A stretch of 64,000 nt of DNA. It comes from an uncultured Candidatus Saccharibacteria bacterium. Its GTDB lineage: Bacteria; Patescibacteriota; Doudnabacteria; UBA920; O2-02-FULL-48-8. The position numbers and the translations under genes are program-made. This document shows, one piece after another, positions 15,318-58,058 of the stretch (its first letter is position 1; each line of letters starts with the position of its first letter). The stretch is taken from positions 4,898 through 68,897 of the forward strand of contig CAYOPE010000001.1 of assembly GCA_964405805.1 (NCBI GenBank), in the 5' to 3' direction. The notes under the pieces are model-generated. The model made no database searches. It saw nothing but the letters and a program-made list of their open reading frames with translations, and was not told the origin of the DNA.

Positions 15318-15395
15318 TACGAAGTACGAAATGGGTACGAAAATACGAAAGGTTATCTCTGTTCGTACTTTCGTAAAGATTCGTAATTTCGTAGA
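15318..15395. repeat. TACGAAA inverted-repeat element, copy 1
   Basis: gtacgaaaatacgaaa...gttcgtactttcgta...attcgtaatttcgtaga. Second copy at 50157-50225. Confidence 0.7.
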
Positions 15396-18190: not shown

Positions 18191-18958
18191 TTAGTGAGTC
18201 CCAGGCGACTTCGTTTTCGGTATTCGACCGCCGAGTTCGAGAATGTGTCCCGCTTGTTCAGTGGTCAATCCGAGGACTGAAGGTTTGAGCTGCTCTGTGG
18301 TCAGCCATTTGTATAGATTTTGAAATGCGTAAGAGAACCTTGCGAGGAGCGTCACGTCATCATTGTTGGTGCTTTTTTCTTCTTGAAGCCAGGCTTGGTA
18401 GGTTTCTGGACCCTTTTTGGCTGCTTCGACCAGCCTGATTTCTTTGAGCTCTTCGTCGTCCGCGATATTCCATTCTCTCTTCAAGTCAACCTGAAGCTCT
18501 TTTTTCAGTTCTTCGATCCTATAGGACAGGTCGCTGTTGCTTTGGGTCCACAGAGGAATCGGATTGTCGTAGCTGAATGCTTCTCGAGGCTCAAACGTGC
18601 AGTGAACGAAGTCCTCATACCTGTCGGCGTATCTCATCCTGATCGTCAACTTTTCGAGTAGAGTTCCACCGTTTTTTTTCCGAAGCCCATTCAGTTCTTG
18701 AGCCGTGGTTTTGAGACTTTCGAACAGGGTCTTGTCTTCGTTCGTTTTTTGTACGAGCACGGACGTCGCGGCATAGCGATCGAAGTACGAACAGATGCTC
18801 TCGCTGAGCGGTTCGGTTCGGACATTCTGTAGAAAGATTGCCAGCCGCGCGATCATCTGCTCACGTTCTTTGTCTTTTCCCTGCGCCGAGGTTGGCACGG
18901 CAGCGAACCCGACGAACAACAGAACCAGCGCGATCAGTCCGATCAGTCGTTTCGTCAT
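18191..18958 (-). CDS. Secreted hypothetical protein, paralog 1 (signal peptide MTKRLIGLIALVLLFVGFAAVPTSAQ)
   Basis: Signal peptide plus a 229-aa mature part. Shares a conserved ICSYFDRY / FCSYYERW motif with the neighbouring paralog. Confidence 0.7.
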   Translation of the reverse strand: MTKRLIGLIALVLLFVGFAAVPTSAQGKDKEREQMIARLAIFLQNVRTEPLSESICSYFDRYAATSVLVQKTNEDKTLFESLKTTAQELNGLRKKNGGTLLEKLTIRMRYADRYEDFVHCTFEPREAFSYDNPIPLWTQSNSDLSYRIEELKKELQVDLKREWNIADDEELKEIRLVEAAKKGPETYQAWLQEEKSTNNDDVTLLARFSYAFQNLYKWLTTEQLKPSVLGLTTEQAGHILELGGRIPKTKSPGTH

Positions 18959-19073: not shown

Positions 19074-19799
19074 CTATGAGCTGGGTTTTCTGAATCCTGG
19101 CGCGGGCATGCTGTGACATTCCATGATTCGCTCAAGTTCCTGCGGTTTCAATGACCAGATCGATGGCGAAACTTGAAAGCGATGATCAGTCATCAGATAC
19201 CAGATCCAGAATGATTCTTTGCAACCTTTTTCGCCTGACTTCCACTGGTTGCGCACGTTCTGAATGTCTTTTATAGACTGCTGGTACAGGTGATCGTTCA
19301 CTTCTTCGATTGACGGAATGTCTTTTGACGAGTAGCTAAGAGCGCTTTCTTTTATCAGGCGATTGAGTAGCAGCGCTACCTCGTACACATTGTCTGTGTA
19401 CAAGGAAAGATCTTCCACGGTTCCTGGTGAAAGTGGCGTTTGAAATCTGCACGTGATCGGGAGGCCATATCCGTACAGTTCGCGTGGTAGTTTTTTGGCC
19501 AATTCACTAGCGGCTGTGCGCTTTGCCAATTCTGCACCGAGATCAGAAACTCCCACGCTTTTCTGCAATTCCTGGTTGAGATTGAGACGGTCGAACAGAA
19601 CCTCGGCTGCTCGCCATCGTTCGTAATAGCTGCAGAATTCGTTGGTTAGGGGTTGCAGTTCCAGGTTCGCGACGATGTTTTTGAGATACGCCACTTGATC
19701 GAACTTCTCTCCGTTACAGCATTGCGCCGAGGTTGGCACGGCAGCGAACCCGACGAACAACAGAACCAGCGCGATCAGTCCGATCAGTCGTTTCGTCAT
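19074..19799 (-). CDS. Secreted hypothetical protein, paralog 2 (identical signal peptide, divergent mature part)
   Basis: The first 26 aa and upstream DNA are identical to paralog 1; the mature 215 aa have diverged. Confidence 0.7.
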   Translation of the reverse strand: MTKRLIGLIALVLLFVGFAAVPTSAQCCNGEKFDQVAYLKNIVANLELQPLTNEFCSYYERWRAAEVLFDRLNLNQELQKSVGVSDLGAELAKRTAASELAKKLPRELYGYGLPITCRFQTPLSPGTVEDLSLYTDNVYEVALLLNRLIKESALSYSSKDIPSIEEVNDHLYQQSIKDIQNVRNQWKSGEKGCKESFWIWYLMTDHRFQVSPSIWSLKPQELERIMECHSMPAPGFRKPSS

Positions 19800-46815: not shown

Positions 46816-48114
46816 ATGACGACTAAGTTTGTTCGAGGCGAGAAGGTGGCCGAAGGCAAGACCAAGGTGATTTACGCAGACGAGAACGACCCGACCGGCG
46901 CCATCGTCTTTTCCAAGGACGATCTGACAGCCGGCGACGGCAAGCGGCACGAGGTCTTCGATGGCTTCGGCGCACTGTCGAATCTGACGACGATCAACAC
47001 ATTCAGCCTGCTCCGCGCCTGCGGCATCCCGGTGGCGTTTCGCGAGAAGATCGATGACAGGACGCTCTCAGCGGATCTGACAGACATGATTCCGCTCGAA
47101 GTGGTGACGCGTCGCGAGGCGCACGGCTCGTTCCTCAAGCGCCATCCGTACCTGAAGCGCGACCACTACTTCCCGCGCCTCGTCTTCGAGCTGTTCCTGA
47201 AGACATCGGGAAAGAAGTGGAAGGAACACAATCTGCTCTGCGACGATCCTTACATGGACTACACGTCGCGACAGGAGCAGGGTTTGGTCGGGTTGTTCTT
47301 GCCCGATCAGCCCCTCTGGTCGCAGCCTTCACCTATGCATGTGGTGAACAGTTCTGAGATCGAAGGGTTTGAGCGCCTGCAGGAGATCGAGGAGATCACC
47401 AGAAAGGTCACCCTCGTCCTGGACAAGGCGCTGCAGATGGTCGGGATCAGGTTCGCGGACATGAAGATCGAGTTCGGAATCACGAAAGATGGCCGACTCG
47501 TGGTCTCAGACGTGATCGACAGTTCGTCGTGGCGGATCGTGGGACCGGACGGGAAGTACATCGACAAACAGCTGTTTCGAGACGGAGCCGAGGTTCCAGT
47601 CATGGCGCAGGTTTTCGCCCGAGGGCTCGAGATCACAAGCCGGTTTCAGGTGCCACCGAAGCAGCAGATCGTCATCTGGACCGGCTCACCGAAGGACGAG
47701 GTCTCGAAGTTCAAAGAGTGGTTGGAGAGTCATCCTCTGCCAATCCAAGTCGTGTATGTGGCCCTGTCCGCGCACAAGCAGCCTGTCCTGGCCGTTCAGA
47801 AGCTCCAGCAGCTCGTGCAGATGACGCCGGACACAGTGGTGGTGGCGTTCATCGGCCGATCCAACGGCGCCGGCCCCACGCTCTCCGGTGCAGTCAGTGT
47901 GCCTGTCCTGACTGTGCCGGCGGACTTCCAGAAAATGCCGGAAGATGTCTGGTCGAGTTTGCGCACACCGAGTGACGTGCCAGTCTCGACCATGCTGGAA
48001 CCCGGGAATGCCCTGCTTCAGGCGGTCCAGATCTTGGCGATGCGCAATCCGCAGCTATATATGGAGCTGCGTCATCGACAGGAAGATCGCCTGAGCAACT
48101 TCGCGCTGCTGTAG
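46816..48114 (+). CDS. purC: Bifunctional PurC-PurE fusion (SAICAR synthetase N-terminal, AIR carboxylase/PurE-like C-terminal)
   Basis: N-terminal ...GEKVAEGKTKVIYADENDP...VFSKDDLTAGDG... is PurC-like. The C-terminal 150 aa (LSAHKQP, GRSNGAGPTLSG, VPVLTVP, NALLQAVQILA) parallel PurE motifs (SAHRTP, AGGAAHLPG, VPVIGVP). Confidence 0.7.
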   Translation: MTTKFVRGEKVAEGKTKVIYADENDPTGAIVFSKDDLTAGDGKRHEVFDGFGALSNLTTINTFSLLRACGIPVAFREKIDDRTLSADLTDMIPLEVVTRREAHGSFLKRHPYLKRDHYFPRLVFELFLKTSGKKWKEHNLLCDDPYMDYTSRQEQGLVGLFLPDQPLWSQPSPMHVVNSSEIEGFERLQEIEEITRKVTLVLDKALQMVGIRFADMKIEFGITKDGRLVVSDVIDSSSWRIVGPDGKYIDKQLFRDGAEVPVMAQVFARGLEITSRFQVPPKQQIVIWTGSPKDEVSKFKEWLESHPLPIQVVYVALSAHKQPVLAVQKLQQLVQMTPDTVVVAFIGRSNGAGPTLSGAVSVPVLTVPADFQKMPEDVWSSLRTPSDVPVSTMLEPGNALLQAVQILAMRNPQLYMELRHRQEDRLSNFALL

Positions 48115-48204: not shown

Positions 48205-49365
48205 TTATTTTGTTTCTACGAGATCCCACACATATTTCGCGGCGTTGATGGGTTTGCCGATGAGGGGATCGTGGTGAAGCTGGATGAATGGCGCGCCATT
48301 GCACTCAATGATCCCGCATTTTTGCTCTTTGTAAGATTTAGTGATGTCAGGAATGATAAAATCAAAGCCGAGAATTGATACATCCAGAAGCTGGCCAGCT
48401 TTCGCCAGCATCTCTTTCGTCTCTGGATGTGTCTCATCAGTGCAGTCATAAGAAGTGCCGCCATAATTGACGCCAATTTTTTCAGAAAGTGCCACAGTCT
48501 GATCTTTGGCCAAAATTAAATCCATACCGAGACTATTGCGCTGCATGAAATACGGATTGACTTTTATCTCTTTTACTTTGTCCGGTCTCTGGGCATCTTT
48601 GATTTTGATGAGTTCTGCGATAGTGTGAATGCCATCACCAGTGACCTGAGGCGAGGAGCCGCCTAGGACTCCGACTAGTTTGCCTCCGATCACAGTACCA
48701 CGCTGCACATCGCCATAGAGATGTTCTTCGATGATAACCCAGTGGCAGACTTGCTTGGAAATTTTAAAAGCTTTTTCCAAATCGTCTTTGGTGTAGACCA
48801 TGGTCGTGGTGTGTCGGCCGCGGGAGCCAGCACGCGGCTTGACGATAAGAGGCTTTTCGAGGGCATCAAATGTTTTGAGGGCTTGAGATACTCTAGTAAA
48901 TGACCCACCAGCAGCCACAGGGAAGTGATATTCGAGTAATTTTTTCTTCAGAAGATATTTATCATCAATCCAAGTTAGGTTTGAGGTAGCGACTTTTTCT
49001 GATCTTGGCAGATTCATAAAATAATGCCAGCGGTTTTGGAGCTTTACTCGATACAGATCTATGGATTTGCCAAATGGCTTGAGTTCCTCGATCTGAAGTC
49101 CTCTGGCGAGCGCTTCTTCCCATAGGACACGCGCACGATCATAAGGAATATTTTTTATATCGCGATTGATTTGAATGAGTCCGAGTGGTTTCAGAACATG
49201 AAAAACAGAAATGCCGATCCATTCGCCAAGTTTGTCCATGATTTGGCCCAACCGACTCTGGACCAAGGTCCGCCTGATCGGGCTAAACAGAATATCTATG
49301 GATTCATAGAATTTGTGAGTCCTGTGCGGTATGGGGTTATTCCCACAGTAAAGGCAGGTTTGCAT
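48205..49365 (-). CDS. ATP-grasp domain protein (cyanophycin-synthetase-N-terminal-like / amino-acid ligase)
   Basis: ATP-grasp core (...KPRAGSRGRH..., GGTSYDCTDETHPE...ILGFDFIIPDITKS). Start placed at MQTCLYCGN because the upstream 78 nt of the longer ORF translate a palindromic repeat. Confidence 0.65.
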   Translation of the reverse strand: MQTCLYCGNNPIPHRTHKFYESIDILFSPIRRTLVQSRLGQIMDKLGEWIGISVFHVLKPLGLIQINRDIKNIPYDRARVLWEEALARGLQIEELKPFGKSIDLYRVKLQNRWHYFMNLPRSEKVATSNLTWIDDKYLLKKKLLEYHFPVAAGGSFTRVSQALKTFDALEKPLIVKPRAGSRGRHTTTMVYTKDDLEKAFKISKQVCHWVIIEEHLYGDVQRGTVIGGKLVGVLGGSSPQVTGDGIHTIAELIKIKDAQRPDKVKEIKVNPYFMQRNSLGMDLILAKDQTVALSEKIGVNYGGTSYDCTDETHPETKEMLAKAGQLLDVSILGFDFIIPDITKSYKEQKCGIIECNGAPFIQLHHDPLIGKPINAAKYVWDLVETK

Positions 49366-49402
49366 GAGTGAATTATACCCCTCACCCGGCGCTTCGCGCC
49401 AC

Positions 49403-49426
49403 CCTCTCCCGGAAGCGGGAGAGGGA
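49403..49426. repeat. Perfect hairpin ccctctccc-ggaa-gcgggagaggg (CTCC/GGAG hairpin family)
   Basis: Same family as 11668-11708, 55227-55248, 55631-55649 and others. Confidence 0.6.
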
Positions 49427-49566
49427 AAATCTGAATTTGACAAACTAAATTCTCAGAAGACACTTTTGTTGATAAGTTTTTCTAGATGTAGAGCGGTAAA
49501 GCAAAATCTATCGAAAAAGTGGGTTTTGACAGGTTTCTATATATAGCGATATATTAACTATGGTTA

Positions 49567-49582
49567 ACACAAGATATTGTGT
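49567..49582. promoter_or_regulatory. NrdR box
   Basis: ACACAAGATATTGTGT is a perfect 16-bp palindrome matching the NrdR-box consensus acaCwAtATaTwGtgt, ~130 nt upstream of nrdR. A degenerate partner (tatatagcgatatat) lies ~30 bp upstream. Confidence 0.6.
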
Positions 49583-49710
49583 TTCCGAAGGCTTAAGGCT
49601 TAGCCTGAGACAAAAAATCAAACAAAAAAGCTTAAGATTGGTTCATTTTACATAGTATCGAGAGGCTTGATGAAGCGTTTTCGCCTATTTTTTTTCGTTC
49701 TCAAAAATCC

Positions 49711-50154
49711 ATGCGTTGCCCTAATTGTTCGAATGAAGACACAAAAGTTTTAGACTCTCGCCCCATCTCTGATGGGATGGCTATTCGGAGGCGCCGGGAA
49801 TGTACGAAATGTGGGGCTAGGTTCTCCACTCACGAGGAAATGGAACTGCTGGATCTGACTGTGGTCAAGCGTGATGGCAGCACCCAGGCCTATATGAGAG
49901 AGAAAATCGAGAATGGGATCAGAAAAGCTTTTGAGAAAAGGCCTCTGAGCCACGATGATTTCCATGCTTTGATCGTCGGCATCGAGCAGGACATCCAGAA
50001 AACCGGAAAAAGTCAGGTCGCGACCAAAGAAATCGGCAACATCGTCATGAAGCGCATAAAAAGTCGGGATCAAGTCGCTTACATCCGGTTTGCAAGTGTG
50101 TATCGCAAGTTTGCAGACGTAGAAGAGTTTGTCAGAGAAGCAAAAAAACTATAA
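49711..50154 (+). CDS. nrdR: Transcriptional repressor NrdR
   Basis: Zn ribbon MRCPNCSNEDTKVLDSR...CTKCGARF followed by an ATP-cone. Confidence 0.9.
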   Translation: MRCPNCSNEDTKVLDSRPISDGMAIRRRRECTKCGARFSTHEEMELLDLTVVKRDGSTQAYMREKIENGIRKAFEKRPLSHDDFHALIVGIEQDIQKTGKSQVATKEIGNIVMKRIKSRDQVAYIRFASVYRKFADVEEFVREAKKL

Positions 50155-50156
50155 TC

Positions 50157-50225
50157 TACGAAATTACGAAATAGTACGAAAATACGAAATGTTCGTACTT
50201 TCGTAGAAAATTCGTACTTCGTAGA
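50157..50225. repeat. TACGAAA inverted-repeat element, copy 2
   Basis: gtacgaaaatacgaaatgttcgtactttcgtagaaaattcgtacttcgtaga, between nrdR and nrdJ; compare 15318-15395. Confidence 0.7.
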
Positions 50226-50254
50226 TAGTAACAAGAATTAACTAAGAACAAACC

Positions 50255-52909
50255 ATGCAACCAAAAGAAAACCTACAAGAAAGAAAAGTAAATGCACTCG
50301 CTGAGCTTGGCGAAAAGATTTTCCTCGATCGCTACGCCATTAAGGACGCGAAAAAGGAAAGTCTCAGTGTAGGTGATACTGCGGTGGTATGTGTGAACCT
50401 AAAAACCGGGCAGCGTGAGATCGGGGTACTGGAAAAAATCGACAGAGAAGCACGCGAAGTAGTAGTCAAGCTTCGTGATGGCACTCTCGAAACTCGATCT
50501 ATTGATCATGTGGACAAGCCATTGGAAACTATGCCAGAACAGATGTTTGAACGCATTGCCAAACACATTGCATCAGTTGAAAACACAGATGAATTGAAAC
50601 AAGAATGGGAAGGACGATTTCGCGAGCTCATGAATGACTGGAAATACGTGCCAGCAGGAAGAATTTTTACAGGCGCAGGCACTGGCCAGAATCTGACTTT
50701 TTATAATTGTTACGTCATACCTTCCCCGCGCGATTCGCGAGGTGGAATTTTCGAGACCCTGGGCCAAATGGCGGAAATCATGTCACGCGGCGGCGGGGTA
50801 GGAATCAATGTCTCGACACTGCGTCCTCGCTACGCTTATGTGAAAGGCGTGAATGGCCGTTCTTCTGGCTCTGTGTCCTGGGCATCACTTTATTCATTTG
50901 TCACTGGGCTCATTGAGCAGGGCGGATCCAGACGCGGAGCGCTGATGTTGATTTTAAACGTCTGGCATCCTGATGTCGTGGATTTTATCAATTCGAAAAA
51001 AGAAGCCGGCAAGATTACGAATGCGAATATTTCTGTAGGAATCACAGATGATTTCATGACTGCGGTGAAGAATGACCAGCCGTGGGATCTAGTTTTTCCA
51101 GACACTTCAGATCCGATGTACCGCGATCGCTGGGATGGAAACATCGGTCGCTGGAAGGAAATTGGTGGTAAAGTCATCAAGCACAAGACGGTTCGTGCCA
51201 AAGACATTTGGGAAAATATTATTTCCTCTGCATGGTCTTCTGCTGAGCCTGGCATGTATTTTATTGATCGAGCGAATTACTACTCCAATTCTCACTATTT
51301 CGCAGATCTGCCATGCACGAATCCTTGTGGCGAGCAGCCGCTGCCTGCCTGGGGCGTGTGTAACCTCGGTCACATCAACCTTGCCAAGCACGTGGATTAC
51401 AGTAAAAAAGATGTGGACTGGAATAAATTAAAGAGAACTGTGCAGGATGCAGTCAGATTTCAGGACAATGTCATTGATGCGACACCTTATTTCTTTGATG
51501 AAAATTATCAGCAGCAAATGAGTGAGCGCAGAGTTGGCATGGGCACGATTGGTCTTGCTGAAATGCTGATTCATTTGGGACTCCGTTATGGTTCTCCTCA
51601 AGGAGTTGAGTTTATCGATAAACTTTACCAGTTTATTTCTATCACAGCCTACGAAACTTCAGTTGATCTCGCTCGTGAAAAGGGTGCGTTTAGTAAATTC
51701 GAAGTTGATAAGTTTTTGCAATCAGGCTTCATGCAGCGAATGCCAGAATACATTCGCCATCTCGTGCGCCAATACGGAATTCGAAACGTAACTATTTTGA
51801 CACAAGCACCGACTGGGACTGTGGGAACAATGGTAGGAACATCCACAGGCATCGAGCCGTTCTTCTCTTGGACATATTTCAGAAAATCTCGACTCGGTGT
51901 GCATCAGGAGCACATCAAACTTGCCAAAGACTGGCTGGATGCGCATCCAGGCGAATCTCTGCCTGACTATTACGTCACAGCTATGGAACTGACTCCAGAA
52001 GAGCACGTGCGTGTGCAGGCTGCTGTGCAGCGCTGGACTGATAGCGCTATCTCAAAAACTGTAAATGCGCCAGAAAACTATACTGTGGAGCAAACTGCGA
52101 AACTCTATGAGTTGCTGTATGATTTGGGAGCTAAAGGCGGGACGATTTACAGAGATGGCTCACGTGATGAACAGATCTTGGCTGTAGATCATAAAAAATT
52201 GGGCAAAGATGCGGCTGAACAAGTGGAGAATGGTAAAGCTGTGATCAAACAGGAACAGCCTGTTCAACCAATACCAACTCCTGAACCTGCCCCAGCACCT
52301 CAAATGCCACCGCAGCCTCAGATGAACTCAATCCAACCCCGCAAGCGACCAGATGTCATGCAAGGATCGACTTATAAAGTCGCGACAGCTTATGGTAATC
52401 TTTATGTCACGGTCAATGAAGACGAGTATGGACCATTTGAAGTTTTCTCGCAGCTTGGCAAGGCTGGTGGCTTCTTCGGCGCTCAGACTGAAGCGATTTG
52501 TCGCATGATTTCTCTGGCACTGCGCTCAGGAATTAGTTTGCCTACAGTTGTCGAGCAGCTCAAAGGCATCCGCGGTCCGGATCCCATGTTCCACAATGGT
52601 GAGCGCATTTTGTCGCTCCCAGATGCGATTGCAAATGTCCTAGAAAATCACATTAAGCGCGGACAGAAAGAACTCCAGCTGGATTTTTCAAAGATAGAAA
52701 AGTCTTCCTTCGCTAAAGCTTCGGAGGACAAGCAACCCGTCTTTCAAGCAGTAACCAAAGAAGTTCATTCTACCGGTTCCGCGTTTGTCACCACACAGAA
52801 GGCAGTTGCTGACTTTGGCGATGCGCCAGTGTGTATGGTTTGTAGCAACATGCTTCGCATGGCAGAAGGTTGCATGAAATGTGAGTACTGCGGGTGGAGT
52901 AAATGCTGA
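50255..52909 (+). CDS. nrdJ: Class II (adenosylcobalamin-dependent) ribonucleotide reductase
   Basis: Active-site NPCGEQPLPAWGVCNLGHINL and a C-terminal Cys-rich tail CMVCSN...CMKCEYCGWSKC; 884 aa. Confidence 0.88.
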   Translation: MQPKENLQERKVNALAELGEKIFLDRYAIKDAKKESLSVGDTAVVCVNLKTGQREIGVLEKIDREAREVVVKLRDGTLETRSIDHVDKPLETMPEQMFERIAKHIASVENTDELKQEWEGRFRELMNDWKYVPAGRIFTGAGTGQNLTFYNCYVIPSPRDSRGGIFETLGQMAEIMSRGGGVGINVSTLRPRYAYVKGVNGRSSGSVSWASLYSFVTGLIEQGGSRRGALMLILNVWHPDVVDFINSKKEAGKITNANISVGITDDFMTAVKNDQPWDLVFPDTSDPMYRDRWDGNIGRWKEIGGKVIKHKTVRAKDIWENIISSAWSSAEPGMYFIDRANYYSNSHYFADLPCTNPCGEQPLPAWGVCNLGHINLAKHVDYSKKDVDWNKLKRTVQDAVRFQDNVIDATPYFFDENYQQQMSERRVGMGTIGLAEMLIHLGLRYGSPQGVEFIDKLYQFISITAYETSVDLAREKGAFSKFEVDKFLQSGFMQRMPEYIRHLVRQYGIRNVTILTQAPTGTVGTMVGTSTGIEPFFSWTYFRKSRLGVHQEHIKLAKDWLDAHPGESLPDYYVTAMELTPEEHVRVQAAVQRWTDSAISKTVNAPENYTVEQTAKLYELLYDLGAKGGTIYRDGSRDEQILAVDHKKLGKDAAEQVENGKAVIKQEQPVQPIPTPEPAPAPQMPPQPQMNSIQPRKRPDVMQGSTYKVATAYGNLYVTVNEDEYGPFEVFSQLGKAGGFFGAQTEAICRMISLALRSGISLPTVVEQLKGIRGPDPMFHNGERILSLPDAIANVLENHIKRGQKELQLDFSKIEKSSFAKASEDKQPVFQAVTKEVHSTGSAFVTTQKAVADFGDAPVCMVCSNMLRMAEGCMKCEYCGWSKC

Positions 52910-53145
52910 TGGATTTTTTAGATGAACAGAAACAAGCTGGTCCAAGGGCTCCTAGTAAAGAGAGAAGAAGAGAGGAGCGACCAAAAAATAATCCTAAAGA
53001 AGATCTAGGCTACAGAATTAAAGGATTGGAAGCAGCAAAAATGGAGCCTGGTATGAGTCCGGCAGATCTAGCGGCACTGGATCGAAGCATTGAGGCGCTG
53101 AAAAAGAAACAAGCAGAAAAAAATCAACCGAAACAAGAAGATTAA
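52903..53145 (+). CDS. Small basic hypothetical protein, translationally coupled to nrdJ
   Basis: 80-aa Lys/Arg/Glu-rich ORF overlapping the nrdJ stop by 7 nt. Confidence 0.4.
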   Translation: MLMDFLDEQKQAGPRAPSKERRREERPKNNPKEDLGYRIKGLEAAKMEPGMSPADLAALDRSIEALKKKQAEKNQPKQED

Positions 53146-53148
53146 AAG

Positions 53149-53177
53149 ATGGGCGGTCCGCCGTCAGCGGACCGCCT
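53149..53177 (+). terminator. Rho-independent terminator
   Basis: ggcggtccgc-cgtca-gcggaccgcc followed by ttaaaaattt. Confidence 0.55.
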
Positions 53178-53186
53178 TAAAAATTT

Positions 53187-53639
53187 ATGGACTGTGTATT
53201 TTGTAAAATTGTTAGTGACGAGTTTGATTCCGCAAAGATCTGGGAAGATGAAAACTATCTGGCGATTTTGGACGTGAATCCCAATGTCCGAGGCATGACT
53301 TTAGTAATGCCCAAAAAGCATTTTGATTCTGATTTGTTTGATATGCCAGAGCAAGATTATAGTGATTTTTTGATTGCAACACGCAAAGTAGCTAAGCTTT
53401 TAGAAAAAAGTCTAGAAGTAAAGCGGGTTGCTCTTGTACTTGAAGGCATGGGTATCAATCATTTGCACGCAAAGTTGTATCCCTTGCATGGTCTTGATGA
53501 AAAATTCCAAGAGATGTGGGCGAGGGACCGTGTGTACTTTGATAAATACGAAGGCTATATCACGACGCAACTTGGTCCCAAGAAAGAATTGGCTGAACTA
53601 AAGCAATTAGCCGAAGAGATTAAGAAAAATGTCGGCTAA
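53187..53639 (+). CDS. HIT family protein
   Basis: MDCVFCKIV... and histidine triad region INHLHAKL. Confidence 0.75.
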   Translation: MDCVFCKIVSDEFDSAKIWEDENYLAILDVNPNVRGMTLVMPKKHFDSDLFDMPEQDYSDFLIATRKVAKLLEKSLEVKRVALVLEGMGINHLHAKLYPLHGLDEKFQEMWARDRVYFDKYEGYITTQLGPKKELAELKQLAEEIKKNVG

Positions 53640-54162
53640 AAAAGGTTTAACCATAATTTACATTGGCGATGGGAAGGGGAAGACCTCTGCGGCGGCGGGG
53701 TTGGCTGTGCGCGCTGCGGGCACAGGATTTAAAGTTTTGTATTTGCAGTTTGTGAAAGGCGACTGGCCGAGCGGTGAGCGAGAAGTTCTGTCGAAACTGA
53801 AAAATGTGGAAGCGAAACTCATGGGCAGAGGATTTGTAGGAATCCTCGGAGATCGTAAACCGATTGAGGAACATATAAAAGCTGCGAAGAATGCGATGAA
53901 AGAGTCGATCAAAGCTCTGAAATCAAAAAAGTATGATCTGGTGATCCTGGATGAAGCGATTTCCGCCATTGAATCTGATTTGCTGACTATTGCTGATGTG
54001 GAAAAAATTATCAAATCCAAGCCAGCCGAAGTTCATCTATGCCTCACAGGCCACAAGCGGATAAAAAAATTGATTGACTTGGCAGATCTGGTCACAGAGA
54101 TGAAGATGATTAAGCACCCATACTATCAGGGGATACTAGCACAACGAGGCATTGACTATTGA
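53629..54162 (+). CDS. cobO: Cob(I)alamin adenosyltransferase (CobO/CobA/BtuR family)
   Basis: GLTIIYIGDGKGKTSAAAGLAVRAAGTGFKVLYLQFVKG is the family P-loop region. Confidence 0.8.
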   Translation: MSAKKGLTIIYIGDGKGKTSAAAGLAVRAAGTGFKVLYLQFVKGDWPSGEREVLSKLKNVEAKLMGRGFVGILGDRKPIEEHIKAAKNAMKESIKALKSKKYDLVILDEAISAIESDLLTIADVEKIIKSKPAEVHLCLTGHKRIKKLIDLADLVTEMKMIKHPYYQGILAQRGIDY

Positions 54163-54205
54163 TAATACTCTGCTAATATTTGGGGGCGCTTAATTTAATA
54201 AATCT

Positions 54206-54661
54206 ATGACAAACCTAGGCAGAAAGATTGAAATATTTATAATCGTGGTCATTATTGCGGTGATTGGCATTGTCTACGCGTTTAGAAAGCCAGCGATTGC
54301 ACCGACCACAAACACAGAACCGAGCCAAAATACTCAGCAACAAGAAGAACAGCCAGTCTCGTCAGGCATGCCAGTGCCGGGAAGTGACGTGCAAGACAAA
54401 GTCGTGGTCACGGCTAATGTCATTGAGTACCGAGGAGTGGATGGGAAAAACGCTCTTGAGCTTCTGCAAGCTTCGCATCGCGTGGACCTAAAGCATTATT
54501 CTTTTGGGGACTTAGTCACAGGAATTGATGGAATTACTCCTGACGCTAGTCACTTCTGGGCTCTCTACGTGAACGGTCAATTTTCCCAAGTCGGTGCATC
54601 TGCTTATATCACGAAATCTTCTGACACGATCAGATGGCAAATAGATGAGGTAAAAAATTAG
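54206..54661 (+). CDS. Membrane-anchored DUF4430-like protein (putative corrinoid-binding, transcobalamin-like)
   Basis: N-terminal TM, Gln-rich linker, ~90-aa C-terminal domain. The family call rests on my recollection of the DUF4430 pattern plus the B12 gene context. Confidence 0.45.
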   Translation: MTNLGRKIEIFIIVVIIAVIGIVYAFRKPAIAPTTNTEPSQNTQQQEEQPVSSGMPVPGSDVQDKVVVTANVIEYRGVDGKNALELLQASHRVDLKHYSFGDLVTGIDGITPDASHFWALYVNGQFSQVGASAYITKSSDTIRWQIDEVKN

Positions 54662-54727
54662 TAATTAATCTGCGCAATGCTGAACTTGATTCAGCATCTC
54701 AAATAGAGATCCTGACTTTCGTCAGGA

Positions 54728-55264
54728 TTGCGTATCGGCAATATGGCTTATTTCTTAGTTTTTTTTGGGGCACTACTTAGAGTCATTCCACATGCGGCGA
54801 ATTTCGTGCCTATTGGCGCTATCGCTCTTTTTGGCGGTGTGTATCTCAGAAAGCGTGAAGCGCTTGTGCTGCCGCTTGCTGCCATGATTTTGTCAGATAT
54901 TTTTATTGGCTTTGATTCGCTCGAGTCGAGATTGACTATTTACGGATGTTTTTTGCTCAGTGGTTTGATCGGACTGACGATTCGTAACCACAAAAGTATT
55001 TGGACAGTAGTCGGCGGAAGCTTGCTTGGCTCGACGTTATTTTATTTGATCACAAACTTTGTCTGGGTTTATTCTACAAAAATGTATCCGCACACCTGGG
55101 CAGGCCAAATGGCGTCTTACACCAATGCCTTACCGTTTTTCCGAAACACAGTCATGAGTGATTTGTTTTACGTCGGAGTTTTGTTTGGAAGCTATGAATT
55201 AGTTAGACATTTTCAAAATAAAACTTCCCTCTCCTTTGAAGGAGAGGGATCGAGGGAGAGGTAG
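54728..55264 (+). CDS. Small polytopic membrane protein, possibly an ECF-transporter S-component-like (CbrT-like) protein
   Basis: ~6 TM helices in 178 aa, adjacent to cobO and DUF4430. The 3' end overlaps a GGAG hairpin repeat. Confidence 0.4.
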   Translation: MRIGNMAYFLVFFGALLRVIPHAANFVPIGAIALFGGVYLRKREALVLPLAAMILSDIFIGFDSLESRLTIYGCFLLSGLIGLTIRNHKSIWTVVGGSLLGSTLFYLITNFVWVYSTKMYPHTWAGQMASYTNALPFFRNTVMSDLFYVGVLFGSYELVRHFQNKTSLSFEGEGSRER

Positions 55265-55267
55265 ATT

Positions 55268-55612
55268 ATGGTCAAATTGTCTCGAGTTATGGTGGCTCGT
55301 AGTAAAGATTTAAGATCGAGGCAAACTCAGTGGGAAGAGATTCTCTGGGACCATTTAAGAGCTAATCATTTTGCCGTTAAGTTTAAAAGACAAGTAGTAA
55401 TTGGCGCATATATTTTCGATTTTGGCGCCAAAAGAAAAAAGTTATTGATAGAACTAGATGGAGCCGGGCATCGCGGTAAGGGAAAGATTGCAGATGAAGA
55501 AAAGATAAAATATGCCCTATCAAGAGGTTTTACTGTTCTGAAGTTTTGGAACAGTGAGATTGAAAGATCGCTAGATAAGGTTTTAGAAGAAATTTTTCAA
55601 AAGATACAGTAG
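55268..55612 (+). CDS. DUF559 (Vsr-like endonuclease fold) protein, paralog 1
   Basis: ...FKRQVVIGAYIFDFGAKRKKLLIELDGAGHRGK...GFTVLKFWNSEI matches the DUF559 pattern. Confidence 0.8.
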   Translation: MVKLSRVMVARSKDLRSRQTQWEEILWDHLRANHFAVKFKRQVVIGAYIFDFGAKRKKLLIELDGAGHRGKGKIADEEKIKYALSRGFTVLKFWNSEIERSLDKVLEEIFQKIQ

Positions 55613-55675
55613 CACCCTCTCTCCCAACCTCTCTCCCTGAAAGGGAGAGAGGAGTTCTAAACGGTAGATATTTTT

Positions 55676-55894
55676 ATGATCATAAAAGTTCATGTAAGAA
55701 CCCATGCCCACGAAGAGAAGATTGAAGAGGTGGGCGTGGATGAGTATAAACTCTGGACCACAGCGATCCCTGAGAATGGCGAGGCCAATGAGGCTGTGAT
55801 CGACATGCTGGCGGATTTTTTTGATACTTCGCCTTCGAAGATCAGGATAATTTCTGGAAACAAAAGCACGCATAAGTTGATAGAAATCGAGTAA
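55676..55894 (+). CDS. DUF167 (YggU family) protein
   Basis: ...KLWTTAIPENGEANEAVIDMLADFF...SGNKSTHKLIEI is the UPF0235 pattern. Confidence 0.7.
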   Translation: MIIKVHVRTHAHEEKIEEVGVDEYKLWTTAIPENGEANEAVIDMLADFFDTSPSKIRIISGNKSTHKLIEIE

Positions 55895-55958
55895 GCTCCC
55901 GTTGACTGGGAGCTGTTTTTTTGCTATGCTGATTGGCCACAAAGGCAGGAGGATTTCC

Positions 55959-56240
55959 ATGGCTCAGATTTCGGCAAAGGTCAGGGCGCAGGACAGTCCG
56001 GAAACGGCCCGCACGGTGTTGGACGAGCTCGAGGGCACGATGCGATTGTATCGATCGATGACCCTTACCGTGCTGGGCAGGATTTCTCTGGTGATGGCCG
56101 GAGAGATCCACCGAGAAACAGCGGATCGACTCGCGGAGAAAGGGAACGACCCAGTGGTGATTACCCGGATCGAGTCGCTCGACCACTTGCTCGTGACAGT
56201 CCGGTGCAGCGCCGCGGAAGTGACGCTGCTCAAGGAGTAA
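55959..56240 (+). CDS. Hypothetical protein in a small GC-rich cassette
   Basis: ATG after GGCAGGAGGAT; followed by GC-rich terminator 56272-56304. Confidence 0.45.
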   Translation: MAQISAKVRAQDSPETARTVLDELEGTMRLYRSMTLTVLGRISLVMAGEIHRETADRLAEKGNDPVVITRIESLDHLLVTVRCSAAEVTLLKE

Positions 56241-56271
56241 CCAACAAGCTCGATTCGTCGGCTCGACTTCA

Positions 56272-56304
56272 CAGGCGGGGGCGCGTGTCGCTCCCGCCTT
56301 TTTT
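56272..56304 (+). terminator. GC-rich rho-independent terminator
   Basis: ggcgggggcgcgtgtcgctcccgcc-tttttttatt. Confidence 0.7.
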
Positions 56305-56362
56305 TATTGTCAAAAAACTGGTAAACTTAAAGAGATCCTAAAACAAGTTCAGGATTACGAAT

Positions 56363-57601
56363 ATGGCAAAAGAAATACCTCAGGTACTCAAGGGCTTTCG
56401 GGACTATCTGCCGCAGGAGCAGGCTGCTCGAAAGAAAATAATTGCGAAAATCTCTGAAGCTTTCGAGCGTTTCGGGTTTTTGCCTTTGGATACGCCAGCT
56501 CTGGAGCCATACGAATTATTTAAAGGCAAAATCGGCGAAGACGAAAAATTAATTTATAAATTTCAAGATCTCGGTGATCGTGAAGTAGCGTTGCGCTATG
56601 ATTTAACAGTCCCACTAGTGCGCGTGGTTTCTGAGTATCAGGATTTGCCGAAACCGTTTAAACGATACCAGATCGCCAATGTCTGGCGCGCTGACAAACC
56701 ACAAAAGGGAAGATACCGAGAATTCACGCAGTGCGACATAGATATCGTGGGCAGTAACTCGAAAATCGCAGACGCGGAAATCATCGCAGCTATGCTTGCG
56801 GCCTACAATAGTCTGGAGATGGGAAATTTTACTGTAAAAGTCAATGACCGCGAGCTAGTAAATCAGGTTTTAAGTGGGCTTGATGTGCCCAAAGAAAAAG
56901 TGGCTGGGTTTATCCGCATCATGGATAAGGTTGCTAAGATTGGTGAAGAGAAAGCATCAGCTATGCTGGTCGAAGCTGGATTTGAAAAAGAAATTCTGAA
57001 GAAATACTCGGAAGCTTGGGAAAGTTCTAGCAAATCATACTTCGACCAATTGCAAAAGCTACTTAGTGGCATGGGCGTGCCGAATATAGTTTTCGATAAA
57101 TACCTCATGCGCGGACAAGACTACTACACTGGCATCATTTTCGAATTTGAAATGAAAGAAAAACCAGAATTTGGCTCGCTCGGCGGCGGCGGTAGGTATG
57201 ATAAAATGTTTGGTCAGGTCACTGGCACTGACATGCCGGCAGTGGGAGGATCGATCGGCTTTGATCGGATGTTTGCGGCCCTTCAGGAAATGGGAGTGAT
57301 CGCCCCTCAGACTGCTGCTGAAGTGATTGTCTTTAATTTGGATGAAAAATTGACTGCAGAATATCTAAATATCGTAACCAATCTTCGAAACGCAGGAATC
57401 GATACTGAATTTTATTATGATGCCGTGAAAATTGATAAGCAATTTAAATATGCAGAGAGCAAAAACATGCAGGTCGCAGTGATCTTTGGCGAAAAAGAAG
57501 CAGGAATGCGCAAAGTCAACCTGAAAAATTTGCAAGAAAAAGAACAGCGGACCGTGGACATGGATGATTTGGTGACAGAAGTGAAGAGCATGCTCTGGTA
57601 A
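56363..57601 (+). CDS. hisS: Histidine--tRNA ligase (canonical)
   Basis: Motif 1/2/3 intact (...RYDLTVPLVR..., RYQIANVWRADKPQKGRYREFTQCD, GGGGRYD) and an anticodon-binding domain. Confidence 0.95.
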   Translation: MAKEIPQVLKGFRDYLPQEQAARKKIIAKISEAFERFGFLPLDTPALEPYELFKGKIGEDEKLIYKFQDLGDREVALRYDLTVPLVRVVSEYQDLPKPFKRYQIANVWRADKPQKGRYREFTQCDIDIVGSNSKIADAEIIAAMLAAYNSLEMGNFTVKVNDRELVNQVLSGLDVPKEKVAGFIRIMDKVAKIGEEKASAMLVEAGFEKEILKKYSEAWESSSKSYFDQLQKLLSGMGVPNIVFDKYLMRGQDYYTGIIFEFEMKEKPEFGSLGGGGRYDKMFGQVTGTDMPAVGGSIGFDRMFAALQEMGVIAPQTAAEVIVFNLDEKLTAEYLNIVTNLRNAGIDTEFYYDAVKIDKQFKYAESKNMQVAVIFGEKEAGMRKVNLKNLQEKEQRTVDMDDLVTEVKSMLW

Positions 57602-57650: not shown

Positions 57651-58058
57651 ATGCATCGTACAATAGGTTTTCGAAAAACTATCCCGATCAGAAGACAGCT
57701 CCGCAGAAACCTCACTGCTCCTGAAAAAGTATTCTGGGAACAAATTGCAAACCGACAGTTTCAAGACCTAAAGTTTGTAAAACAACATGGTATCGGTCCC
57801 TATATCGTAGACTTTTGTTGCCGAGCTTTAATGCTGATTATAGAAATAGATGGCGATAGTCATGCTACAAACTTTGGGATATCTCAAGACAAAGTCAGAA
57901 CCGGATATTTAGAAAACCTAGGCTACAAGATTATTCGCTATAATAACCACGATGTCATCAATAACCTCGATGGAGTGTTCCAAGATCTGAAAAGCAAAAC
58001 CGACCTCCTCTTAATCTCCTCCTTAAAAGGAGGAGAGATAACTGCGCGGGAGTCCTAA
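57651..58058 (+). CDS. DUF559 (Vsr-like endonuclease fold) protein, paralog 2
   Basis: ...KFVKQHGIGPYIVDFCCRALMLIIEIDGDSH...GYKIIRYNNHDV. The C-terminal 14 codons translate the 42-nt repeat (58004-58045). Confidence 0.8.
   Translation: MHRTIGFRKTIPIRRQLRRNLTAPEKVFWEQIANRQFQDLKFVKQHGIGPYIVDFCCRALMLIIEIDGDSHATNFGISQDKVRTGYLENLGYKIIRYNNHDVINNLDGVFQDLKSKTDLLLISSLKGGEITARES

Follow-up and report, generated by a model that had tools for sequence, protein, structure and literature searches.

A likely cofactor supply cluster for B12-dependent ribonucleotide reductase, with a probable importer of the uncharacterised DUF6580 family, in a Doudnabacteria-like CPR bacterium

The closest described system is the Lactobacillus nrdJ-cbrS-cbrT-pduO cluster with its ECF-CbrT transporter, which reportedly goes back to a prediction made by Rodionov in 2009. 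This cluster has been studied experimentally in L. delbrueckii, and Lactobacillus CbrT depends on an ECF module whose genes lie outside the cluster (Santos et al., 2018; PMC5997447). A solitary variant is known as well: BtuM of Thiobacillus denitrificans is an S-component-like B12 transporter and decyanase with an invariant, essential cysteine (Cys80) that ligates cobalt; btuM and btuR co-localize, and the system is proposed to work by metabolic trapping (Rempel et al., 2018; PMC6072759). Furthermore, bacterial DUF4430 (SLBB) surface proteins have been described as secreted or membrane-anchored beta-grasp domains that are homologous to the beta domain of transcobalamin, frequently with an alpha/alpha toroid in the same polypeptide or in a neighboring gene; they are found in organisms lacking B12 synthesis, are predicted to be B12 scavengers, and their operons are reported to usually include CbiO/CbiQ genes (Burroughs et al., 2007; PMC1796856).

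The window, i.e., the whole 64-kb stretch of DNA analyzed here, contains a cluster of the type already known from Lactobacillus, in a CPR variant with a transporter of another family and with NrdR boxes replacing the riboswitch. Along the + strand, a promoter-like site with NrdR boxes is followed by nrdR, nrdJ, a small ORF, a HIT family gene, cobO, a DUF4430 gene and the gene for a six-helix membrane protein (Table 1). All genes listed in the first-pass annotation, among them a CobO adenosyltransferase downstream of nrdJ in the same orientation, were recovered in place on the + strand, each with family support, and NrdR, NrdJ, CobO, DUF4430 and DUF6580 all score above the curated family cutoffs. 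NrdR matches TIGR00244 (182.4 bits vs. a cutoff of 124.65, E 4.8e-54) along with PF22811 and PF03477; CobO matches PF02572 (198 bits vs. 25.7, E 1.5e-58) and TIGR00708 (173.4 bits vs. 167.75). NrdJ matches TIGR02504 (587.1 bits vs. 399.95), PF02867 (E 3e-119) and PF12637 and, by the equivalog model, is a predicted AdoCbl-dependent class II enzyme. The small ORF, which was missing from the earlier gene list, has no match in family-profile searches, and its homologs are found at the equivalent position in 8 related loci. The HIT protein was considered as a pathway member, but this is not supported, given that among the related loci it appears at this place only in L001, a contig of the same organism, and is absent there in all others.

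Table 1. Features of the cluster, with positions in the window
Feature	Position	Strand	Remarks
Promoter-like site	49526..49555	+	TTGACA, 18-nt spacer, TATATT; consensus match only
Weak second NrdR box TTTCTATATATAGCGA	49534..49549	+	Within promoter spacer, 33 bp 5' of strong box
Strong NrdR box ACACAAGATATTGTGT	49567..49582	+	Directly 3' of the -10 hexamer
nrdR	49711..50154	+	Zn-ribbon and ATP-cone repressor
Long TACGAAA-repeat hairpin between nrdR and nrdJ	50153..50230	+	No U-tail
nrdJ	50255..52909	+	Class II (adenosylcobalamin-dependent) ribonucleotide reductase; C-terminal TSCPD domain, Cys-rich tail
Lys/Glu-rich 80-aa ORF	52903..53145	+	Overlaps nrdJ stop
GC-rich palindromic hairpin between small ORF and HIT	53152..53176	.	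T-tract on + strand weak
HIT family protein	53187..53639	+	PF01230, E 1e-10; 3' end overlaps cobO start by 11 nt
cobO/btuR, ATP:cob(I)alamin adenosyltransferase	53629..54162	+	
DUF4430 protein	54206..54661	+	N-terminal membrane anchor, disordered linker, extracytoplasmic domain
DUF6580 six-helix membrane protein	54743..55264	+	Alternative TTG start at 54728

The parallel with the Lactobacillus cluster is one of logic and of gene order and covers the class II reductase, the small DUF4430 protein, the six-helix membrane protein with the S-component fold, the cobalamin adenosyltransferase and the setting of B12 auxotrophy; in locus L082, the cbrS position is itself occupied by a DUF4430 gene, and the DUF4430 protein of the window can, by position, be regarded as the CbrS equivalent. 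The two clusters differ in several respects. The membrane protein of the window belongs to DUF6580 rather than to ECF_trnsprt (PF12822/PF07155) and shows only marginal similarity to CbrT; the adenosyltransferase is of the CobO type and is encoded upstream, whereas that of Lactobacillus is of the PduO type; the reductase is of the NrdJ_Z type with a TSCPD tail, whereas the L082 enzyme is RTPR-like; and nrdR and its boxes are part of the cluster.

The gene context of DUF6580 was surveyed in 80 loci at the GTDB species level. A DUF4430 gene is located immediately 5' of the DUF6580 gene in 58 of these, and CobO and NrdJ are each encoded upstream in 33 (either one in 43); in L052 and L064, a PduO-type adenosyltransferase is encoded 3' of DUF6580, and in L058 and L080, TonB-dependent receptors adjoin it. 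Alpha/alpha-toroid proteins are encoded in a quarter of the loci (20 of the 80), and among the 15 toroid proteins inspected, 9 also contain DUF4430 and 4 match Pfam Cobalamin_bind, one of them above the threshold. The window DUF4430 protein and the toroid-DUF4430 proteins of the related loci match the published description of the transcobalamin-like SLBB proteins (PMC1796856), with the difference that the latter are reported to be linked mainly to CbiO/CbiQ-like genes, whereas DUF6580 is the constant companion in the CPR loci, with no CbiO/CbiQ gene nearby. An apparent N-terminal extension of DUF6580 in P0330 looks like a gene-call run-on and was set aside.

A cobalamin-class riboswitch is present directly 5' of the DUF6580 operon in 11 of the 38 loci scanned, 8 from CPR and 3 from Bacteroidota/Ignavibacteriales; in the latter three, the neighbor of DUF6580 is either a TonB-dependent receptor or a binding protein of the BtuF type, with no ATPase. 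The extended B12-box pattern also flagged Bacteroidota/Ignavibacteriales loci, and a scan with the simple GCCACTG B12-box was uninformative. No riboswitch was found in nine loci that share the architecture of the window, and in the window itself the Rfam cobalamin clan yields no hit at the gathering threshold or, over positions 49300-55400, with the cutoff relaxed to E<=5, in agreement with the initial impression that none is obvious. Because the window and these nine loci have no riboswitch, the link of the window operon to B12 rests on context and homology. It could still be argued that the genes are neighbors only because a small genome is tightly packed, and that neither membrane protein has anything to do with nrdJ and cobO. 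Genes for HIT, DUF559, NUDIX, HAD and methyltransferase proteins interrupt the cluster at different places in the relatives, so unrelated genes do land in it. However, the DUF4430-DUF6580 pair and its linkage to cobO, pduO or nrdJ are retained at DUF6580 identities as low as about 45% and across many CPR classes, P0350 naturally joins DUF6580 via an additional transmembrane helix to DUF4430 in one fusion protein, and the riboswitch control of the homologs is an independent link to B12; we strongly disfavor incidental packing and consider it very improbable.

The first-pass annotation described the two membrane proteins as DUF4430-like and ECF-S-like and called for a check against protein families; this check identified PF14478 in the first (49.5 bits vs. 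a cutoff of 23.8) and PF20221, i.e., DUF6580, in the second (165.8 bits vs. a gathering score of 27). In a fold search, the structure model of the DUF4430 protein matches only a DUF4430 structure and the beta domains of cobalamin carriers; in line with the guess, the modeled domain is a beta-grasp fold like that of transcobalamin's B12-binding beta domain. The crystallized DUF4430 protein is annotated only as 'putative metal binding protein'.

That annotation, together with the fact that CbrT and BtuM handle cobinamide too, leaves room for a different cargo of the DUF4430-DUF6580 pair, such as cobinamide or another incomplete corrinoid, a lower ligand, cobalt or an unrelated vitamin. We consider this improbable, given that the neighbors are an adenosyltransferase and an AdoCbl-dependent enzyme rather than corrinoid-remodeling or cobalt-insertion genes, and that homologous operons come with cobalamin/AdoCbl riboswitches, transcobalamin-like proteins, a BtuB-like receptor and a BtuF-like protein. 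A CPR genome, moreover, is unlikely to encode the means to finish a corrinoid.

In the public annotation, the last gene begins with the ATG at 54743, yielding a protein of 173 aa, and this is probably the actual start rather than the TTG at 54728. The structure model shows the six-helix fold of ECF S-components, which bears out the ECF-S-like guess, with the solitary B12 transporter BtuM (PDB 8ovv) as the top match in both fold-search methods. At the sequence level, direct PDB searches with both membrane proteins returned nothing significant, and the DUF6580 protein of the window has no match to the named S-component families (PF12822, PF07155 and others) at E<=0.1. The family is large, with 5,732 cluster representatives (50% identity) matching the family profile at E<=1e-3, and its distribution is mainly in CPR. 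A search of the available literature found no paper mentioning DUF6580/PF20221 and none on ECF or B12 transporters in CPR.

As in the BtuM system, DUF6580 is a small six-helix protein with an adenosyltransferase of the BtuR/CobO type encoded near it (in the window, cobO is two genes 5' of DUF6580), and its Bacteroidota/Ignavibacteriales members are encoded beside TonB-dependent receptors just as btuM is beside btuB. DUF6580 was nevertheless rejected as a member of BtuM, since the cysteine that defines the latter is absent: the counterpart of Cys80 is missing from all 82 aligned DUF6580 sequences, where no column has Cys in >=30% of the sequences. A different set of residues is invariant in the family (R13, H17, N20, P44, D52, F100, N105, Y115, P131 and F132), and without the cobalt-ligating cysteine any binding chemistry must differ from that of BtuM. 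In addition, sequence searches gave no BtuM match, DUF6580 usually comes with an extracytoplasmic binder that BtuM lacks, and it is distributed mainly in CPR rather than in Proteobacteria.

The similarity to CbrT raises the alternative that DUF6580 is a highly diverged CbrT-type S-component that uses a common ECF module (EcfA/A'/T) from another part of the genome, in which case uptake would be ATP-driven instead of proceeding by facilitated diffusion with trapping. In an hmmsearch of the PDB with the family profile, the best match is CbrT (6fnp_A; marginal E 0.064, helices 1-3), and an hhalign comparison with CbrT gives 59.6% probability and E 8.9e-5 over 64 columns, using N-terminal fragments of CbrT that cover half of the protein; the motifs IPxPN[FV]xP[IV] and M..S[DN]..[IL]GF are common to both. 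A single family member (P0250) also weakly matches ECF-ribofla_trS (PF07155; E 0.003, below the model cutoff), and the nrdJ-DUF4430-cbrT-pduO cluster of Lactobacillus is laid out alike, with its module encoded elsewhere. Given that bacterial DUF4430 operons are often reported with CbiO/CbiQ (PMC1796856), an ECF module elsewhere in this genome is possible. Against this alternative, the 64-kb window contains neither an ABC ATPase gene nor a CbiQ-type gene, and no ECF ATPase or CbiQ-like gene adjoins DUF6580 in the 80 loci, the one adjacent ABC gene, in L070, being an exporter-type half-transporter; the riboswitch operons of Bacteroidota/Ignavibacteriales pair DUF6580 with a receptor or binding protein and no ATPase; and BtuM ranks first in both fold searches. 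Taken together, we regard this alternative as rather unlikely.

NrdR operators are 16-bp palindromes with the consensus acaCwAtATaTwGtgt that lie 5' of nrd genes, usually in tandem, and the NrdR regulon, with such boxes upstream of nrd operons, was reportedly delineated by Rodionov and Gelfand in 2005. The box noted earlier 5' of nrdR-nrdJ is indeed present and differs from the consensus at 1 position, being the only site with <=3 mismatches in the window; it had been described as a perfect palindrome, but is symmetric at 14 of 16 positions, with 2 central mismatches against its own reverse complement. The weak second box retains an intact core, CTATATATAG, with 5 mismatches in the flanks. Both overlap the promoter-like site, which is the top sigma-70-like match (11 of 12 positions) in a scan of 49300-56400. 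A box 5' of nrdR was found in 22 of 29 related loci, and tandem boxes with the same 33-bp spacing recur in L004, L022 and L026. This arrangement, a near-consensus palindrome and a second box about three helical turns away that overlap the promoter of an nrd operon, is that of the NrdR regulon; the differences are the weakness of the second box and the possible continuation of the operon into cofactor-acquisition genes. Because the two boxes overlap the promoter, the state of the nucleotide pool would govern the expression of at least nrdR-nrdJ. With transcriptional read-through, the same NrdR control would extend to the uptake genes, with no riboswitch-mediated response to B12.

Such read-through could be interrupted by two hairpins. 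The one between nrdR and nrdJ (-29.5 kcal/mol, z-score -6.2) was considered as an nrdJ-specific regulator, but this role was rejected because the element occurs a second time, behind dnaK at 15318-15388, and only some relatives carry one; it looks like a REP-like element. The hairpin between the small ORF and the HIT gene is possibly a partial terminator.

We consider it likely that the locus is a compact cofactor supply chain for the B12-dependent reductase, as the first-pass annotation proposed; this reading draws on the gene order conserved in CPR, the riboswitches that precede homologous DUF6580 operons and the analogous Lactobacillus cluster. The membrane-anchored DUF4430 protein would capture the corrinoid outside the cell via its transcobalamin-beta-like domain and pass it to the adjacent DUF6580 protein, which would move it across the membrane; CobO would then adenosylate it, and the resulting AdoCbl would load NrdJ. 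By analogy with BtuM, energy coupling would most likely follow the pattern of a solitary S-component-like carrier, where the imported cofactor is trapped in the cell through its adenosylation and its binding to the enzyme. More tentatively, and with appreciable doubt, we suggest that DUF6580 constitutes, apart from CbrT and BtuM, a third cobalamin transporter family with the S-component fold that may function without a dedicated ABC module and with DUF4430, alone or with a toroid, as an obligate extracytoplasmic partner, and that, in clusters of the Doudnabacteria type, B12 acquisition may answer to the dNTP-sensing repressor NrdR instead of a B12 riboswitch. If so, DUF6580 would be a binding-protein-assisted solitary S-component.

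CPR bacteria depend for most of their cofactors on other cells. Among prokaryotes that require B12, a large fraction has no known uptake system for it (PMC6072759; PMC5997447). A cluster that combines a ribonucleotide reductase with its B12 supply is not new, and in this respect the gain is incremental rather than conceptual. Full two-domain transcobalamin-like proteins are common beside DUF6580 in CPR, which bears on the origin of animal B12 carriers. Several independent lines connect DUF6580 with B12, namely the neighbor genes, riboswitches in two distant phyla, the fusion protein and the fold, and the likely B12 importer of this locus belongs to this uncharacterised family. The locus and its relatives thus provide a concrete, testable candidate family of B12 importers that comprises about 5,700 clusters at 50% identity.

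The cobalamin cluster singled out in the first-pass annotation is confirmed: all of the claimed genes are present on the plus strand, and the identities of NrdR, NrdJ and CobO are backed by the respective family models (see the table). The closest homologues (74% identity) are found in Candidatus Doudnabacteria MAGs, and the window therefore derives from a CPR/Patescibacteria genome. The 80-aa ORF is conserved: 8 related loci encode a homologue in the corresponding place.

Features of the cobalamin cluster region, 49526-55264
Feature	Position	Strand	Evidence and remarks
Promoter-like site	from 49526	+	start of the cluster region
nrdR	49711-50154	+	TIGR00244, 182 bits
nrdR-nrdJ spacer	100 bp	+	contains a long hairpin
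nrdJ	50255-52909	+	TIGR02504, 587 bits; ribonucleotide-reductase barrel and TSCPD domain
80-aa Lys/Glu-rich ORF	52903-53145	+	overlaps the nrdJ stop; no family match
HIT protein	53187-53639	+	
cobO	53629-54162	+	PF02572, E 1.5e-58; TIGR00708 above cutoff; start overlaps the HIT end by 11 nt
DUF4430 protein	54206-54661	+	
DUF6580 protein	54743-55264	+	

A DUF559 gene (Vsr-like endonuclease fold; 55268-55612) begins 3 bp after the DUF6580 gene, another lies at 57651-58058, and further ones (protein cluster c17) are found in the related loci L003, L012, L015, L020, L025 and L062 of other genomes; their position in and around the cluster varies between genomes, which suggests that they are mobile or selfish insertions. 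Elsewhere in the window, a single ORF (46816-48114) encodes a SAICAR synthetase (PurC) domain together with an AIR carboxylase (PurE) domain; for an ATP-grasp protein encoded divergently from nrdR (48205-49443, minus strand), the match to cyanophycin synthetase and GshAB-type ligases is confined to their central part; and the products of two adjacent paralogous minus-strand genes (18191-18958 and 19074-19799) share the same signal-like sequence at the N terminus (MTKRLIGLIALVLLFVGFAAVPTSAQ).

The strong NrdR box (ACACAAGATATTGTGT, 49567-49582) has one mismatch to the consensus and is the sole site in the 64 kb with three or fewer, but it is not the perfect palindrome originally described, its symmetry being broken at two central positions. 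Located 33 bp upstream is a weak second box (TTTCTATATATAGCGA, 49534-49549) with an intact core (CTATATATAG), and clear tandem boxes with the same spacing are present in L004, L022 and L026. In 22 of 29 related loci, nrdR has a box upstream; no upstream sequence is available for three of the other seven. The best promoter-like match of the region, TTGACA-18 nt-TATATT (49526-49555, 11 of 12 positions), contains the weak box within its spacer and is followed, just downstream of the -10 hexamer, by the strong box, an arrangement usual for repressors. Co-transcription of the cluster from this NrdR-controlled promoter is plausible; neighboring genes overlap by at most 11 nt or are at most 100 bp apart, and hairpins at 50153-50230 and 53152-53176 could attenuate read-through. 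A palindromic element of TACGAAA/TTTCGTA repeats is present in two copies (15318-15388 and 50157-50218), the first directly following the dnaK stop codon and the second the nrdR stop codon; similar repeat hairpins occur only sporadically in the nrdR-nrdJ spacer of related loci, and the element looks like a REP-like intergenic element. In the CPR loci L027, L030, L033, L050 and L066, a small NrdH/glutaredoxin-like gene (~82 aa, c19), not found in the cluster of the window, precedes nrdR-nrdJ at a distance of a few genes.

The membrane protein belongs to PF20221 (DUF6580; 166 bits), a family of 5,732 clusters (50% identity) at E<=1e-3 and 3,733 at E<=1e-10, which NCBI labels 'putative transport protein' and nothing more; a literature search found no paper that mentions it. 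The modelled structure agrees with the earlier 'ECF-S-like' label at the level of the fold, and its top structural match is BtuM. The hallmark of BtuM is an invariant cobalt-ligating cysteine (PMC6072759); an alignment of 82 DUF6580 proteins shows no conserved cysteine whatsoever (the invariant residues are R13, H17, N20, P44, D52, F100, N105, Y115, P131 and F132); membership in BtuM is accordingly rejected. At the sequence level, the best PDB match of the DUF6580 profile is 6fnp_A, the ECF-CbrT entry (E 0.064, helices 1-3), and profile-profile comparison with N-terminal fragments of CbrT-like proteins (PF12822/PF07155) gives 59.6% probability, with the motifs IPxPN[FV]xP[IV] and M..S[DN]..[IL]GF in common. 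This similarity is no more than suggestive, and a CbrT-like mode of transport, dependent on an ECF module, is conceivable for DUF6580 but rather unlikely. A BtuM-like mode without such a module is favored because BtuM is the top structural match, no module was found in any context examined (a CbiO/CbiQ-type module adjoins DUF6580 in none of the 80 loci analyzed), and the Bacteroidota and Ignavibacteriales operons lack an ATPase.

These 80 loci are the best of 314 relatives detected in a scan in which each GTDB species was represented by one genome, and come from many CPR classes, two Bacteroidota and one Ignavibacteriales. DUF4430 is encoded immediately before DUF6580 in 58 of them and further upstream in 8 more, and divergent copies occur in some loci. 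CobO and NrdJ each lie upstream, in the same orientation, in 33 (either one in 43); a PduO-type adenosyltransferase is encoded downstream in L052 and L064. Furthermore, in P0350 (337 aa, a metagenomic cluster representative), DUF6580, a seventh transmembrane helix and DUF4430 are naturally fused into one protein. The sole adjoining ABC gene (L070:2298-4019), directly upstream of DUF4430-DUF6580, encodes an exporter-fold half-transporter (ABC_membrane and ABC_tran). B12 import by exporter-fold ABC proteins is exemplified by mycobacterial BacA, and by analogy, the L070 protein might provide a second B12 route.

The DUF4430-like assignment also holds, the protein passing the Pfam threshold. In its predicted structure, a helix at the N terminus (residues 4-26) and a disordered linker are followed by a confidently modelled beta-rich domain (pLDDT >94, residues 70-150), and the fold matches a DUF4430 crystal structure, haptocorrin, intrinsic factor, the isolated transcobalamin beta domain and bovine transcobalamin. 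Secreted alpha/alpha-toroid proteins adjoin DUF6580 in 20 of the 80 loci; 9 of the 15 examined have a DUF4430 domain as well, which in L045 (5124-6938), L054 (5107-6984) and L067 (5414-6997) follows the toroid, as in transcobalamin, and four of the 15 match the Pfam family 'Eukaryotic cobalamin-binding protein', one above the gathering score (L047:4794-7517). The secreted CPR proteins that combine a toroid with DUF4430, those of L045, L054, L067 and L047 among them, have the two-domain transcobalamin architecture.

In eight loci (L003, L004, L010, L011, L017, L019, L021 (6989-7585) and L024), a CYTH-domain protein is encoded between cobO and DUF4430, a place comparable to that of HIT in the window. 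This protein may serve to clear triphosphate, the by-product of CobA-type adenosyltransferases, given that CYTH enzymes are triphosphatases. In Saccharimonadales, ~410-aa proteins without an identified family (c85) are encoded immediately upstream of DUF4430-DUF6580 (L014:5008-7544, with two copies, and L023:6287-7552).

Cobalamin-clan riboswitches directly precede the DUF6580 operon in 11 of the 38 loci scanned. In L053, one aptamer lies directly before a DUF6580 gene and another before a BtuF-like binding protein and a second DUF6580 gene; in L058, the order is aptamer, TonB-dependent receptor, DUF6580; and in L080, one aptamer precedes DUF6580 and another a TonB-dependent receptor and a DUF5074 beta-propeller (80-87 bits in these three loci, against a gathering score of 31.5). 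The CPR loci carry AdoCbl (L054, L067, L041), AdoCbl-II (L064, L052, L038, L033) or Cobalamin (L036) aptamers. By contrast, none was detected in nine loci sharing the architecture of the window or, even at E<=5, in the window itself, as had been noted from the sequence. This suggests two regulatory styles: in one, uptake operons are under riboswitch control and often include full transcobalamin-like proteins; in the other, that of Doudnabacteria-type clusters, NrdR boxes are present and the cluster is fused behind nrdR-nrdJ.

The logic of capture, import, adenosylation and delivery to NrdJ is already established given the precedents of the Lactobacillus delbrueckii cluster nrdJ-cbrS-cbrT-pduO, described with ECF-CbrT (PMC5997447), of btuM, which co-localizes with btuR and for which toppling and metabolic trapping have been proposed (PMC6072759), and of the bacterial transcobalamin-like SLBB proteins, often toroid-fused and predicted to scavenge B12 in non-producers (Burroughs et al., 2007; PMC1796856). 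The CbrT-like gene locus L082 (class II RNR, DUF4430 of 130 aa, ECF_trnsprt, PduO) matches the L. delbrueckii order, which places DUF4430 at the cbrS position. Unlike these known clusters, that of the window employs an uncharacterized transporter family, DUF6580, and a CobO-type adenosyltransferase, and includes nrdR with its operator. Alongside the gene identities and folds established here, the conserved linkage, the DUF6580-DUF4430 fusion and the riboswitch control of homologues support the supply-chain interpretation, in which the DUF4430 protein would bind corrinoid outside the cell, DUF6580 would carry it across the membrane, and CobO would trap it as AdoCbl for NrdJ. The main outcome is a well-supported, testable function prediction for DUF6580, along with its predicted partnership with transcobalamin-like binders in CPR bacteria.
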